Origin: an uncultured bacterium
GTDB lineage: Bacteria > Cyanobacteriota > Vampirovibrionia > Gastranaerophilales > Gastranaerophilaceae
Assembly (NCBI GenBank): GCA_947073645.1
Contig: CAMTMK010000009.1
Coordinates: 812-64,811, forward strand
Direction: 5' to 3'
DNA: 64,000 nt
The notes below the pieces were generated by a model, which was not told the origin of the DNA, ran no database searches, and was given only the letters and a program-made list of their open reading frames with translations. The translations under genes and the position numbers were made by a program. Numbering within the stretch: the first letter of the stretch is position 1; each line of letters starts with the position of its first letter. Of the stretch, positions 6,173 to 47,565 are shown piece after piece.

Positions 6173-6856
6173 TTTCCCAACCGTTGCGTTTTAAAAGTTC
6201 CGTACAATAAAACATAGCATTGCCGGAGGCACATTTTTGCAATACTACATCATCTGACATATTTTCACCTAATGTAAAAAATCCGTTTTGAGAATTAAAC
6301 ATTATCGGGAAAATATCATGTCCAAATCTGTTTTCACCAGAACCGCCATTTATGTCAATCATTATTATGAACATTCGGACAATACCTGTTGTTCCGTCGC
6401 CGTTATTTGCAAATATCAATGTTGTACCGTTTACAAGTTCAGCAAAATAGTAGTAGTAATGAGGTGGTGTATAATTATAAATACCGTTTTTATATCCTTT
6501 TTCTTGCAGTTGCGCACGTTTAGGCGGTGATGTTAGTTGTAAATACGGCAAAATATATTTGTCTGCAAATATTTTAACAAATTGTGTGTCTTGAATGTCT
6601 TCAACCTGTAAGCCCGAGTTTGCTTCCGACCAGCCGGAATAATCTCCATATTCTGTCTGTGCCATTTGAACTGCTTGATATAACTGGCTATATGCAGTTT
6701 TTACTCTTGTTGATACAACTTTCTTTTGATGTTTAGTGATTAATGTTGGAATAGTTATTGCTGCAACTACACCAATAATACCTAAAGTAATAAGGACTTC
6801 CGCTAAAGTGAAACCTTCGGGGGGGGGGTGCTTATGGCTTTTGATACTGTTTTCAT
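6150..6856 (-). CDS. Type IV pilin-like protein (prepilin N-methylation motif); frameshifted at a C10 tract in the leader (putative phase-OFF)
   Basis: ATG at 6856 with GGAGA RBS reads MKTVSKAISTPPP then stops; the frame from 6818 reads EGFTLAEVLITLGIIGVVAAITIPTLI and joins ORF 6150-6665; C8 or C11 would restore the frame. Confidence 0.88.
6819..6828. repeat. G10 homopolymer (C10 on coding strand)
   Basis: Counted directly: ttcGGGGGGGGGGtgc. Confidence 0.95.
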
Positions 6857-22500: not shown

Positions 22501-23252
22501 ATGAAAGATTTTAATCAACTTGTCGGGGGGGGGGCACTCATAGCGTAACTCCTGCATTCACGTTAGCCGAGGTTTTAATTACTATCGGCATTATTGGTGT
22601 CGTTGCTGCAATGACTATGCCTACTCTTATGGCAAGCACTCAGAAAAAAGAATTGCAAACAGCTTTAAAAAAGGCTTATTCGACTTTGAGTCAAGCACTT
22701 ATGATGTATGAAAATGATAATGGCTGGCCTGTTACGTCTAAGTTAGAAGTTGGACAGTTAAAGCCGATTTTGATGAAATATATTAATACTGCAAAAGATT
22801 GTGGAATAGGTACTGAGGGAGATAAAGCCTGTATGCCTAATAAAGCATACGTAAGCAATCCTGATGATTATAAAGATATATATAAAACATTTAATGGTAA
22901 AAATAATATTAATTACGCATTGTTTGATGATGGTCAGTTTGTAATGAATGACAATATGTTCGTAATGATTGAAAATGGTTATCAGTCGAGGTATCCGGAT
23001 GCGACTGTTGCAAGGGTATGGATTTCTGTTGATGTTAATGGTTTTAATAAAAGACCAAATCGCTTTGGACAGGATTTATTTATGTTTCAAATAAATGATA
23101 AGGGTGCACTTTTGCCTATGGGGGCTGAGGGAACTGAATATTACAGTGAAAATGATGCTTATTGCTCTTCTGTATCATCAAGCAGTTTAAATGGTGCAGG
23201 GTGTACTGCAAATGCATTGAATGATGAAGATTTTTGGAAGAGTATGCCGTAA
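22501..23252 (+). CDS. Type IV pilin-like protein; frameshifted at a G10 tract in the leader (putative phase-OFF)
   Basis: AGGAGAGG RBS, ATG 22501 MKDFNQLVGGG then TAA; the frame from 22539 reads HSVTPAFTLAEVLITIGIIGVVAAMTMP and joins ORF 22611-23252; G8 or G11 restores the frame. Confidence 0.88.
22525..22534. repeat. G10 homopolymer
   Basis: Counted directly: gtcGGGGGGGGGGcac. Confidence 0.95.
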
Positions 23253-43078: not shown

Positions 43079-43652
43079 TATCAGTAATTATATGTTTTAT
43101 ATGGCTTATTTGAACAGAAAACTGGAAGGTTTTTTTAATGATCAAACACCATATATTAAATGTAAAAAGGGTTGTGCAAAATGCTGTCAAAACGGCGAAT
43201 ACCCGTTTTCTAAAATAGAATTTGATTATTTAATGGTTGGTTTTTTACAGCTTCCAGTTGAAATTCAACAAAAAATTATGACGAAAGTTAAAAAGATTAA
43301 AGAAGCCAAATCTGAAACTTATGAATGTCCGTTTTTGTTTAACAATACTTGTTCGGTTTATGAGTTCCGCGGAATTGTCTGTAGAAGTTTCGGGCTTATG
43401 TCAATAAATAATGACGGCGGTTTTTCAAAGATTCCATTTTGTGCGTTTGAGGGTTTGAATTATTCAAATGTAATCGACCCTGATACAAAAATTGTTTCTC
43501 AGGAAAAATTTGATAAACTCGGTGTCAAGGAAGAACCGCTTGCATATAATGTAAGCTATTCATTCCTTACAAGTCCTGAAATTGAAAAGAATTTTGAGAT
43601 TGATTTTGGCGAGAAAAAACCGCTTATTAATTGGTTTGAATGTCCGCAATAA
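43059..43652 (+). CDS. YkgJ-family cysteine-cluster protein
   Basis: CKKGCAKCC, CPFL, CSVYEFRGIVCRSFG. Confidence 0.88.
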   Translation: MMSENINISNYMFYMAYLNRKLEGFFNDQTPYIKCKKGCAKCCQNGEYPFSKIEFDYLMVGFLQLPVEIQQKIMTKVKKIKEAKSETYECPFLFNNTCSVYEFRGIVCRSFGLMSINNDGGFSKIPFCAFEGLNYSNVIDPDTKIVSQEKFDKLGVKEEPLAYNVSYSFLTSPEIEKNFEIDFGEKKPLINWFECPQ

Positions 43653-45285
43653 TTTTGTCTCTCAAACCTTCATAATGATTTAAAACTCTTTCCAAATCTT
43701 TATCGAACAAGTTTTCTCCATGGTCGTTAATTTTGGTCAGGCATGGACCTTTTTTGGTTGCATTAATTTCTTTTGGTCTTGCAATATTTTTGTCTATTAC
43801 ATTAATTTTTACATTGTTCATAACAGCCATAAGCCAGAACCAAATATCATCATTGGTTGGAGCAAGCGTTGTGAAAAGTTCTTCATTAGTAATATCTTTA
43901 TAAAGTATGTTCGGCGGGTATAAAACACCTCCGCATCCTACAAGTTTGTTGCCAAATGACGGTTTTTTATACCATTTTACACCTTTAACTTTAAATTCGC
44001 CGTCTTTCTTAAGTGAGAATTTTGTTGCTCTGTGACAGTGGATAAGTTTCGGATTTTTCTCATAAGCTTTCCACAAAAGTTTTATTAAATTTTTGTCATA
44101 GATAAAGTCGTCGTCAACAGTTATAATAATATCGTTCGGATATTGTTTAAGTGTCGGAATTAATTTTTTATATGATTTTATGTTGCCTTTGTTCCAGTTT
44201 ATAATTAAACCTTGTTCTCTTAATTTTAAAAGGTTTTCCGGTAAATCTCCTTCTCTATTCGGGAATTCATCTTCTGACAATTGTAAAATAATTTTATCCG
44301 GTTTCATTGTTTGGTTAAGAAGCGATTCAATTGTGATATGTAATGTTGGAATTCTGAATGGAAAAGATGTCAGTGAAACTATCAATTCAGGTTTTGGAAG
44401 TTCAGGAAGTTTCAACATATCGCCCCAAACTCTGTTGTAGTTTGATGGAATAAACTTATCAACACCGCTTGCTGATGTGAATGTCATTTCGCCGAAATAA
44501 ATTTTTCCGTCAACATTATAAAAATCAACTCTGACTAAACTGAAATCTTTAGCTAAAATTTCTGCAAGTTCAAACATTTTATCAAGATTTTGGGGTGGTG
44601 CAACTTCTTCTTTAGAGTTTGGATAAGTTAACAAGAATGGTTGTAATTCCCATTTTGTATTATAGATATTTTCGGTTCTGTCAGTAAATCTTCCTTGGTC
44701 AATCCAAATATATTCCGGTTTGCCGTTGAAGCACATTATTTTGTAGTCATTTAACTCTTTGTTGCTGTCTTCAATGTAAGCTTCGGCAACAATTTTTGGA
44801 GGAATATCTTTGTAATGAAGTTCTACTCCGCCGTTTTGGGCGTAATTTCTTTTCATCCATTTATTGAATTTTTTGCGTGCATCTTCAATATCCATTTTGG
44901 ATTTGTCTTTGACAATGTAGTTGTATGCACAGCCATGGTTGCCCTTTAGTACAAATCTGTCAGGAAGTTTGTCAAAATCAATATCATCAAATTTATCCCA
45001 AACGCCAAGAAGCGGAATTAGGTATTCTTCACCGATTTTTTCTTTAATCCATTCTCTGACTAAATATTTATCAGCGAGTTTAGTTTTCAGAGGAGTGCTG
45101 TCGTAGAGTTTCAGCCATTGGATTTTTTCATTAAAAGTTTTCGGGTCATCTAAATTAAGAATTTCACCTGTTTTTTTAAAAAACCAAACTTTTAAATAAA
45201 TTTTAAGTTTATCTAACGGCATATCAAGTGGTAATCTGACTTTAATCCCCAGTAAAGTTGCCAACAAACCCAAATAAAATCTCAT
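43627..45285 (-). CDS. TupA-like ATP-grasp domain fused to a C-terminal glycosyltransferase-like domain
   Basis: NPKTF-type KTFNEKIQWLKL, LADKY, KGNHG, DYK, RVDFY, FGEMTF; then IVSLTSFPFRI, KSYKKL, TVDDD, GCGGVLYPP, DDIW; ATG 45285 after GGGAG. Confidence 0.85.
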   Translation of the reverse strand: MRFYLGLLATLLGIKVRLPLDMPLDKLKIYLKVWFFKKTGEILNLDDPKTFNEKIQWLKLYDSTPLKTKLADKYLVREWIKEKIGEEYLIPLLGVWDKFDDIDFDKLPDRFVLKGNHGCAYNYIVKDKSKMDIEDARKKFNKWMKRNYAQNGGVELHYKDIPPKIVAEAYIEDSNKELNDYKIMCFNGKPEYIWIDQGRFTDRTENIYNTKWELQPFLLTYPNSKEEVAPPQNLDKMFELAEILAKDFSLVRVDFYNVDGKIYFGEMTFTSASGVDKFIPSNYNRVWGDMLKLPELPKPELIVSLTSFPFRIPTLHITIESLLNQTMKPDKIILQLSEDEFPNREGDLPENLLKLREQGLIINWNKGNIKSYKKLIPTLKQYPNDIIITVDDDFIYDKNLIKLLWKAYEKNPKLIHCHRATKFSLKKDGEFKVKGVKWYKKPSFGNKLVGCGGVLYPPNILYKDITNEELFTTLAPTNDDIWFWLMAVMNNVKINVIDKNIARPKEINATKKGPCLTKINDHGENLFDKDLERVLNHYEGLRDKIIADIQTN

Positions 45286-45346: not shown

Positions 45347-45817
45347 TTAAGATTGTTGATTGATATCATTAATTATTTTTTCTTTTATACCTGTATAATA
45401 TTCGAGAATTCTTTCTAAATCCTTATAAAACAGATTTTCACCCTGGTCATTGATATAAGTCAGGCAAGGCCCTTTTTTACTTGATAATATTGCTTTTATT
45501 CCAGTTAATAGTCAATCCAAATTCTTTCAATTTTAAGAGATTTTCCGGCAAATCATTTTCTTTATTCGGAAATTCATCTTCAGATAATTGTAAAATTATC
45601 ATATTTGGTTTTTTTGTTTGGCATAATAAAGAACTGATTGTTATATGCAAAGTTGAAATTCTCGCTGGAAAAGATGTTAGAGATATTATTAAAATGGGGG
45701 GGGGGCAGATTCTATGCCTGTTTTTTTAATAATAGGCACTATTCGATATTCAAATCTAAATCCGCAAATATGAATTATTCTTTTATCATCCAATTTTTCT
45801 TTATAAAATAATCTCAT
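45347..45817 (-). pseudogene. Remnant paralog of the C-terminal domain of 43627-45285: C10 frameshift plus large internal deletion
   Basis: ATG 45817 overlaps the upstream stop; MRLFYKEK...ESAPPPF*; the shifted frame reads ILIISLTSFPARISTLH...WNKSNIIK*; a third frame reads KKGPCLTYINDQGENLF...NQQS*. Confidence 0.8.
45696..45705. repeat. G10 homopolymer (C10 on coding strand)
   Basis: Counted directly. Confidence 0.95.
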
Positions 45818-47565
45818 TTATTTTCCTTAATAGGTAATTCTAACATATCACCCAAAATTCTGTTGTAATCTGATGGGATAAATCTTTCGATACCACTTGC
45901 AGATGTGAATGTCATTTCACCAAAGTATATTTTCCCATCAACATTGTAAAAGTCGACTCGTACAAAAGGAAAACCTTCTGAAAGAATTCTTGCTAAGTTA
46001 ATCATTTTATCCAAATTTTCAGGTGGTAAGATTTCTTCTTTAGTATTTTCCCATAGTTGTAAAAACGGTTGTAATTCCCAATTAGTATTATATATATTTC
46101 TTCTGTGGTCGGTAAATCTTCCTTTATCAACCCAAATAAATTTTGGTGTACCTGAAAAGCACATAATTTTGTAATCATTTAATTCTTTATTTTTGTCTTC
46201 AATATATGTTTCTGCAGTGATTTTGGGTGGAATATCTTTATAATGAAGTTCTAAACCATGTTTATATGCAAAATTTTCCTTCATCCATTTATTGAATTTT
46301 TTGCGTGCATCTTTAATATCCATTTTGGATTTGTCTTTGACAATGTAGTTGTAAGCACAGCCGTGATTACCTTTTAGAACAAACTGCTGTGGGAGTTTAT
46401 CAAAATTTATATCATCAAATTTATCCCAAACGCCAAGAAGCGGAATTAGGTATTCTTCGCCAATTTTTTCTTTAATCCATTCTCTGACTAAATATTTATC
46501 AGCGAGTTTAGTTTTCAGAGGAGTGCTGTCGTAAAGTTTCAGCCATTGGATTTTTTCATTAAAAGTTTTCGGATTATCCAAATTTAAAACACAACCTGTT
46601 ATATTGAAAAACCATTTTTTCAAATATATATCATATTTTTCGGGGGGGGGGCAATTTTGTGTTCTTATTTTTATTTTAAAGCCAAATATTTTTATTATTA
46701 CATGTGTAATTTCTTTTTGGATATCAAAAAGGTTACCTATTCTATATTGTATTGGTAAAAATTTATCCATTTGTTCAATATAGTAAGTTTTCATAGTTTT
46801 ATCACATAATTTAAGTTCAAATTTAAAACATCTGCGGGCACATTTGTAAAACTCTTTATGCCATTGATTCATTTTATTATGTTTTTCCAATAATTCTTTT
46901 AAAGCAGAAAATGCTTCTAAAACACAGTATGTATACTTCCCTCTGGAACTTGATAAACTGCCGGAATGTGATACTCTGTAAGTTACAAGAATATCCGGTA
47001 TGCTTATAATTGAAGATGCAAGTATAGCTGAAGCATAATTAAAATAAACATCATTACAAATTCTTGTTTCCTGACATTTTATATTATTTTCTTTAATAAA
47101 ACTTGTTTTATATAATTTTGTAAATAATGGTACTGGATGTATTTTAAATATATTATTGAGTTTTTTTAATTTTTTTGAAGGTTTTTTTATTGTATTTGTA
47201 TTTTCATCATAATATTGGCATTTGCAAAGACAGATGTCTGAATCACCTATAGAATTTGTTAGTTTTTCCATAGCATTTAGTTCTATATAATCATCACTGT
47301 CTAAAAAGTATAAAAATTCACCGTTGGCTGATTCTATTCCTACATTTCGTGCTTTACCGGCACCTGAATTCTTTTGTGTAATTATTTTTATTCTATTATC
47401 TTTTTCTTGGAATTGTTCAAGAATTTTTAAAGAATTATCATTAGAGCCGTCGTTAACACAAATTATTTCAATATCAGTAAGTGTTTGATTGATTACGCTT
47501 TTAATACATTCTTCCAGATGTTTTTCTGCATTATAAACAGGTATAATTACTGAAACTTTAACCAT
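45814..47565 (-). CDS. GT2 glycosyltransferase fused to a TupA-like ATP-grasp domain through an in-frame C10 tract
   Basis: VSVIIPVYN, VNDGS, FLDSDD; CPPP linker; KTFNEKIQWLKL, RVDFY, FGEMTF. Confidence 0.9.
   Translation of the reverse strand: MVKVSVIIPVYNAEKHLEECIKSVINQTLTDIEIICVNDGSNDNSLKILEQFQEKDNRIKIITQKNSGAGKARNVGIESANGEFLYFLDSDDYIELNAMEKLTNSIGDSDICLCKCQYYDENTNTIKKPSKKLKKLNNIFKIHPVPLFTKLYKTSFIKENNIKCQETRICNDVYFNYASAILASSIISIPDILVTYRVSHSGSLSSSRGKYTYCVLEAFSALKELLEKHNKMNQWHKEFYKCARRCFKFELKLCDKTMKTYYIEQMDKFLPIQYRIGNLFDIQKEITHVIIKIFGFKIKIRTQNCPPPEKYDIYLKKWFFNITGCVLNLDNPKTFNEKIQWLKLYDSTPLKTKLADKYLVREWIKEKIGEEYLIPLLGVWDKFDDINFDKLPQQFVLKGNHGCAYNYIVKDKSKMDIKDARKKFNKWMKENFAYKHGLELHYKDIPPKITAETYIEDKNKELNDYKIMCFSGTPKFIWVDKGRFTDHRRNIYNTNWELQPFLQLWENTKEEILPPENLDKMINLARILSEGFPFVRVDFYNVDGKIYFGEMTFTSASGIERFIPSDYNRILGDMLELPIKENK
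46642..46651. repeat. G10 homopolymer (C10 on coding strand), in frame
   Basis: TGC CCC CCC CCC GAA on the minus strand. Confidence 0.95.

Follow-up and report, generated by a model that had tools for sequence, protein, structure and literature searches.

A poly-C tract between the glycosyltransferase and ATP-grasp modules of a Gastranaerophilaceae enzyme as a probable contingency switch

In the HS:2 capsule of Campylobacter jejuni, the TupA-like ATP-grasp domain of Cj1438 is an amidoligase that amidates the C6 carboxylate of glucuronic acid with ethanolamine phosphate or serinol phosphate, and the first 325 residues of the protein, which comprise a GT2 glycosyltransferase, are soluble and active alone (PMC11800379). 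We describe here a gene of similar design, gene A, in a 64,000-nt stretch of DNA (the window) from an uncultured mouse-gut member of the Gastranaerophilaceae, and two runs of ten C residues, one inside gene A (run 1) and one in the gene that follows it (run 2). As in Cj1438, an N-terminal GT2 and a C-terminal TupA-like ATP-grasp domain are joined in one polypeptide. However, Cj1438 has a middle domain of ~125 residues, whereas gene A has a linker of about 35 residues with one hairpin, and no linker homopolymer is reported for Cj1438 (PMC11800379), whereas gene A carries a C10 in its linker. Gene A, moreover, comes from a commensal of the gut that belongs to the Vampirovibrionia, and for it the chemistry of Cj1438 serves as an analogy. 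The known phase-variable tracts of the Cj1438 capsule locus lie in other genes.

The Neisseria lgt and pgl genes, the Helicobacter fut genes and the Campylobacter lipooligosaccharide and capsule genes (PMC10425976, PMC3401435) likewise contain a homopolymer within an open reading frame (ORF), are frameshifted by slippage and give surface glycan variation. These poly-G/C systems also have many loci per genome and a sharp modal run length, which is 9 there and 10 here. Their tracts are usually 5'-proximal or within a single catalytic domain and turn the whole protein ON or OFF, whereas run 1 falls in an interdomain coil and a complete first module remains. The poly-G tract of the C. jejuni Type IIG restriction-modification gene cj0031 also lies deep in a long multidomain gene; its switch is described as ON/OFF of the methylation of the whole enzyme (PMC4889913), which is no glycan enzyme. 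The mechanism is of a well-known kind; new are its placement between domains, its lineage and its scale. A literature search turned up no publication that connects phase variation with this group of bacteria.

Run 1 at the module boundary of gene A

The features of gene A are given below as positions in the window. Both tracts are G10 on the plus strand and, the genes being on the minus strand, are read as C10.

45814..47565, minus strand: gene A, 583-residue bifunctional GT2/TupA-like ATP-grasp protein (Pfam and AlphaFold2)
46759..47565, minus strand: GT2 (GT-A) module, residues 1-269; Pfam GT2 core at 47155-47553; DSDD at residues 89-92
46663..46704, minus strand: beta-hairpin 'tag' HVIIKIFGFKIKIR, residues 288-301, directly upstream of run 1; AlphaFold2 strands 288-293 and 296-301
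46642..46651, minus strand: run 1, C10 on the coding strand, in frame; supplies the last base of C305 and P306-P308
46620..46633, minus strand: two TGA stops; C11 and C8 forms meet the one at 46631-46633, C9 and C12 forms the one at 46620-46622
45841..46557, minus strand: TupA-like ATP-grasp (amidoligase) domain, residues 337-575, Pfam PF14305; the module begins at helix 308-323

The GT2 match in Pfam spans residues 5-137 (E 1.2e-36), and D89, D91 and D92 are invariant, giving the DxD motif of GT-A GT2 enzymes; the ATPgrasp_TupA profile (PF14305) is matched at full length (positions 1-240 of 241, E 1.2e-65). A sequence search of the PDB returned GT2 matches only and no solved TupA-like relative. 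The AlphaFold2 model (predicted local distance difference test score, pLDDT, 87.8; predicted template modelling score 0.59) consists of a GT-A module with a helical bundle at residues 1-269, a low-confidence stretch, the hairpin at 288-301, a coil at 302-307 and the first ATP-grasp helix at 308-323. Only residues 270-307, a disordered stretch and one hairpin, thus lie between the modules, and run 1 falls in the six-residue coil (pLDDT about 60-66). A preliminary description of this DNA had placed an in-frame C10 (CPPP) between the GT2 and TupA-like ATP-grasp domains, and it is indeed found there, at C305-P308.

The length of run 1 was changed in silico. The full 583 residues were obtained with C7, C10 or C13, whereas C9 and C12 gave 314 and 315 residues (the C9 form stopping after 6 codons) and C11 and C8 gave 311 and 310 residues (the C11 form stopping after 3 codons). 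A change of a single base in run 1 therefore alters the product, and the run itself is an uninterrupted G/C run of at least 8 bases inside an ORF, well beyond chance. These lengths bear out the earlier statement that C9 or C11 would meet a TGA within a few codons and leave a GT2-only product of ~310 residues.

When compared by Foldseek, the N-terminal ~310 residues matched CgT, TarS, TarP and RmlT, the best structural matches being the GT-A enzymes TarP and TarS of Staphylococcus aureus and CgT (GalT1) of Streptococcus parasanguinis. TarP, whose full length (~315 residues) is that of the truncated product, aligned over about 315 columns. Sequence identity to TarP, TarS and CgT is only 22-27%, and they have neither an ATP-grasp domain nor a tract. 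Stand-alone GT2 relatives of 330-358 residues cover 94-99% of the 314-residue truncated form and finish with the same hairpin motif (for example ...ILGIKLKLKCK). Because the truncated product matches stand-alone GT2 enzymes both in extent and in its terminal hairpin, it has a natural architecture.

We also considered whether the ATP-grasp part is translated independently in the OFF states. This was rejected: there is no Shine-Dalgarno motif, and the TTGA stop/start overlap of the C9 form in this genome is not conserved in the sister species (G015). At the other end of gene A, its TGA stop overlaps the ATG of the leader of the following gene (the middle gene) in an ATGA at 45814-45817. This overlap suggests translational coupling between the two genes, and an OFF state of run 1 could therefore also reduce downstream gene expression.

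Variation, conservation and consequence of the junction run

The junction varies in length in the sister species. Among the contigs in the 90% cluster of the G015 gene A in a public protein collection, the protein is fused (581 or 587 residues) in 27 and truncated in 8, the truncated forms reading KCPPPTSMK... (C9) in 5 contigs, KCPPPRQV (C11) in 2 and KCPPRQV (C8) in 1, from different samples. Hence GT2-only and fused orthologs, the comparison proposed in the preliminary description, both occur, and its claim that the runs are real mutable tracts agrees with the presence of C8, C9, C10 and C11 at the orthologous junction in sister-species assemblies. At the DNA level, three variant contigs were read: C11 was present in two different Sequence Read Archive (SRA) samples and C9 in a third, with identical flanks and with more than 100 nt between the run and the contig end. 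Tract length in the sister species therefore varies between independent samples, from C8 to C11 at run 1 and between ON and OFF at run 2 (see below). This polymorphism is observed between samples; from it we infer reversible switching within a population.

The position of the run is conserved as well. C10 is found at the same GT2/ATP-grasp junction in five lineages, namely this genome and four more at 59-81% protein identity: the fused G015 ortholog (81%, C10 in frame), the L036 lineage (71%) and the orthologs P0003 (61%) and P0005 (59%), on contigs L033/L034 and L035, respectively. Of the proline codons in this genome, CCC is the least used (7.6%), and the retention of three CCC codons across five lineages despite this rarity argues for selection. 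More remote fused homologs lack the run, with P(E/A)EKY in its place at the junction. Because such runless fusions are widespread, the fusion is old and the run a later addition within a Gastranaerophilaceae clade; an origin of the fusion through the run was rejected on the same grounds (runless GT2-ATP-grasp fusions include P0004, P0006, P0015 and P0018).

We propose that both runs are slipped-strand contingency tracts and part of a genus-wide set. The coil that holds run 1 lies between the beta-hairpin that closes a TarP-like GT2 module and the helix with which a TupA-like ATP-grasp amidoligase module begins. C10 (also C7 and C13) would yield the bifunctional enzyme, and other lengths, through a stop 3-6 codons on, a GT2-plus-hairpin protein of 310-315 residues. 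The switch would take away the ATP-grasp module and with it, presumably, the amide on a uronic acid; the module that transfers sugar could persist. Run 2 would be the same device in the next glycosyltransferase gene, where it separates the leader hairpin from the catalytic domain, a still-mutable relic in this genome and a working ON/OFF switch in the sister species. That the runs are real slippage switches is very likely, and the explanation as a whole is probable; that run 1 takes away the amidation module alone, with a GT2 that still works, is a more tentative proposition, somewhat short of an even chance, in which the activity of the truncated GT2 and the chemistry of the ATP-grasp module in this organism are taken by analogy.

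Several observations weigh against this explanation. Run 1 is C10 in both known assemblies of this genome's own species, and exact look-ups of the C8, C9, C11 and C12 forms of the gene A of this species found none, the species being rare in collections. Length differences between short-read assemblies could in part be homopolymer error. Run 2 is still present in a pseudogene (see below), and runs can thus survive without function. A run encoding PPP is tolerable only in a linker, and its location alone is no proof of a module-specific role. Finally, in Cj1438 the amidated glucuronic acid that the C-terminal domain produces is the only acceptor to which the GT2 transfers N-acetylgalactofuranosamine (GalfNAc) (PMC11800379). 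The GT2 step of gene A may therefore also fail without the ATP-grasp module, unless a paralog in the neighbouring gene B substitutes for it.

The last two points are those on which the strongest alternative is built, namely that run 1 is an ordinary ON/OFF switch of the whole enzyme: the truncated GT2 would be useless, being either unstable or without an amidated acceptor, both steps would be lost and the glycan truncated, and the position of the run in the linker need not be adaptive. We regard this as possible but distinctly less probable than retention of the GT2. Apart from the natural architecture of the truncated form, a plain OFF switch would be expected in the first 50 codons, where 54 of the 60 runs of at least 9 bases in this genome lie (positions in the best ORF); run 1, at codon 305 of 583, is among only six deeper ones. 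Two further findings, in gene B and in the L036 lineage, also speak against it. Gene B lies beyond the middle gene:

43627..45285, minus strand: gene B, TupA-like ATP-grasp fused to an SLTSFP-type glycosyltransferase; 552 residues from the ATG at 45285

The ATP-grasp domain of gene B is a paralog of that of gene A, 77% identical to it in protein sequence and 82% in nucleotide sequence over about 800 bp, and might compensate for its loss. In the L036 lineage (L036, Logan SRR22923219; P0308), the invariant W318 of the ATP-grasp part is changed from TGG to TAG in two assemblies, which carry runs of C10 and C6, yet the GT2 frame is open in both. Identities computed domain by domain, as a check for relaxed selection on the L036 ATP-grasp domain, were not informative, since the modules are of mosaic history. 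This lineage has no middle gene between genes A and B.

The mosaic histories were seen when the two halves of the orthologs P0001, P0129, P0002, P0003, P0005 and L036 were compared: GT2 and ATP-grasp identities are 97% versus 83% between G015 and P0002, and 67% versus 80% between P0005 and L036. The two halves thus have different histories, which points to recombination or gene conversion among ATP-grasp paralogs. One contig (L032; ENA ERZ13641601, NODE_1958, 2.7x coverage) encodes an 836-residue protein in which GT2, C10, an ATP-grasp domain (an A/B hybrid) and an SLTSFP-type glycosyltransferase follow one another; either recombination between the paralogous ATP-grasp copies of genes A and B has truly deleted DNA here, or the assembly has collapsed. 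In L033 (Logan SRR33036525), the 61%-identical ortholog with C10 adjoins a phosphoenolpyruvate mutase/cytidylyltransferase fusion, a thiamine pyrophosphate enzyme (phosphonate synthesis), a TagF-like transferase and an integrase. The phosphonate synthesis genes and the TagF-like transferase place the gene A family in surface-glycan decoration, and 2-aminoethylphosphonate is a candidate amine for the ATP-grasp domain.

Run 2 and the decayed middle gene

The middle gene comprises the following features.

45689..45817, minus strand: 42-residue leader ORF, homologous to the N terminus of stand-alone glycosyltransferases of ~297 residues
45696..45705, minus strand: run 2, C10; the leader and the glycosyltransferase fragment ILIISLTSFPARI, here out of frame with each other, would form one frame with C11 or C8
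45347..45725, minus strand: SLTSFP-type glycosyltransferase remnant; N-terminal fragment 45477-45725 (ILIISLTSFPARI) and C-terminal fragment 45347-45511, in different frames

Alignment with the G015 ortholog revealed a 418-bp internal deletion near 45492-45495. A stand-alone SLTSFP-type glycosyltransferase has the leader hairpin, SLTSFP, DDD and NDDIWFW in one open frame; the middle gene keeps the leader and SLTSFP, and DDD and NDDIWFW are gone with the deletion. Because the DDD motif is removed, the gene is a pseudogene at any run length. The preliminary description was thus right that a C10 separates a short leader from the ILIISLTSFPARI domain and is out of frame, but as a switch in this genome it does not stand, since the deletion has killed the gene. 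The same type of domain is intact at the C terminus of gene B.

In G015, the middle gene is intact (L013, 7659-8375, plus leader) but out of frame at C11, C10 being required. The predicted ON protein of 294 residues is present letter for letter in an NCBI assembly, and among public contigs of the sister species the tract allele is ON in 5 and OFF in 13, with a tract-less allele (SSCPV) in 34. Members of the ~297-residue family without a run have the same leader (MKLFxKEKxGKxRII..G[LI]KFxYR). Run 2 also differs within the species of this genome, being C10 in the window and C12 in sample ERR5031959 (L037), where it sits 6 nt from the contig end. A deletion from run to run would yield an in-frame GT2-CPPP-SLTSFP fusion; an exact look-up of the predicted sister-species protein, a weak test, gave no match, and this product remains only speculation.

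G/C runs across the genome

To place the two runs in context, all G/C runs were counted in the genome (1.71 Mb, 37 contigs, 34.4% GC) and compared with expectations under a model of independent and identically distributed bases. There are 68 runs of at least 8 bases, against about 2 expected.

Run length 6: observed 18, expected 61
Run length 7: observed 0, expected 10.6
Run length 8: observed 4, expected 1.8
Run length 9: observed 9, expected 0.3
Run length 10: observed 43, expected 0.06
Run length 11: observed 10
Run length 12: observed 2

The depletion of medium runs together with the sharp mode at 10 is a signature of selected mutable tracts. Most of the runs within the first 50 codons fall in the leader of a prepilin-type protein, where they are usually out of frame. 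Of the 25 genomes of this genus among the relatives examined (G001-G040), 24 gave between tens and more than 300 overlapping 9-mer hits, and there are nearly none in the other nine families of the order. Examples in the window are at 6819-6828, 22525-22534, 45696-45705 and 46642-46651.

The runs are strongly biased in strand and context. In 59 of the 64 runs of at least 9 bases, the G lies on the strand of positive local GC skew irrespective of gene orientation, and the flank 5'-G-Cn-GA-3' was counted by eye in 55-60 of the 68 runs, including 9-10 of 12 in non-pilin genes. Strand bias and common flanks suggest a replication-strand-specific origin or maintenance. Every contig except C4 has only G-runs or only C-runs on the plus strand, and 37 runs are read as GGG and 27 as PPP.

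The same bias, the recurrence of the flanks even in unrelated genes and the persistence of a run in the dead middle gene would fit a second alternative, in which the runs are by-products of replication-strand-biased mutation in the genus, tolerated where harmless and unselected. We consider this improbable, because the runs cluster in pilin-like and glycan genes, at 5' leaders and linkers, runs of 6-7 bases are depleted, the same site has been kept over five lineages against AT-biased codon usage, and ON and OFF alleles are both common. That the length differences are sequencing or assembly artefacts at homopolymers, the true run being invariant, is scarcely credible: although every variant contig comes from a short-read assembly, the L037 run lies close to a contig end and the L032 coverage is low, C11 recurs in two samples and at least three contigs carry C9, with the flanks and contig positions described above, and both states of the middle gene also occur in NCBI genome assemblies. 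Loss of mismatch repair was rejected as the cause of the runs, as MutS_I was detected in 40 and MutL_C in 39 of 41 relatives and both are present in this genome, which in this respect differs from Campylobacter and Helicobacter.

A more far-reaching extension of the contingency explanation is that the G-runs of the genus form an organised system, with the positive-GC-skew strand, a common 5'-TC-Gn-C flank, intact MutS/MutL and a placement after the hairpin tag such that each catalytic module has its own switch. Runs would then have to be created or maintained by a dedicated process, and modules would be toggled, perhaps exchanged, at a standard junction. We regard this extension as unlikely; if it were true, the two runs would give four glycan states in the sister species.

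Homopolymer-slippage phase variation is a textbook property of a few small-genome pathogens, and here a non-pathogenic gut bacterium related to the cyanobacteria would use it on a large scale. The interdomain position of run 1 suggests that slippage can edit a multidomain enzyme by module, beyond mere silencing. If our explanation is true, a few runs could yield combinatorial surface-glycan variants, which would be relevant to phage and immune escape in the gut. A consequence for annotation is that such genes are split or labelled 'frameshifted' in metagenome-assembled genomes.

In-frame runs also occur in two more glycan-related genes. One encodes a GT-D fold glycosyltransferase, with the run (G000:C13:1640-1649) at codon 69, ahead of the domain; the other encodes a hexapeptide-repeat acyltransferase, with the run (C13:21848-21857) at codon 116. 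Other deep runs are an in-frame C10 at codon 929 of a 1139-residue protein (G000:C7:53641) and a G12 at codon 279 of a 433-residue protein without a Pfam match (C5:61665), and further switching of C-terminal modules is possible at these two sites. The beta-hairpin motif (h-h-G-[IFL]-[KR]-[IFV]-x-[IFY]-[KR]) recurs at module boundaries, at 46663-46704 and 45740-45770 in the window and in the G000:C13:1640 region. It closes stand-alone GT2 enzymes and opens stand-alone ATP-grasp, SLTSFP-type glycosyltransferase, GT-D and hexapeptide-transferase proteins, and it stands before the run in gene A, in the middle gene and in the GT-D gene.

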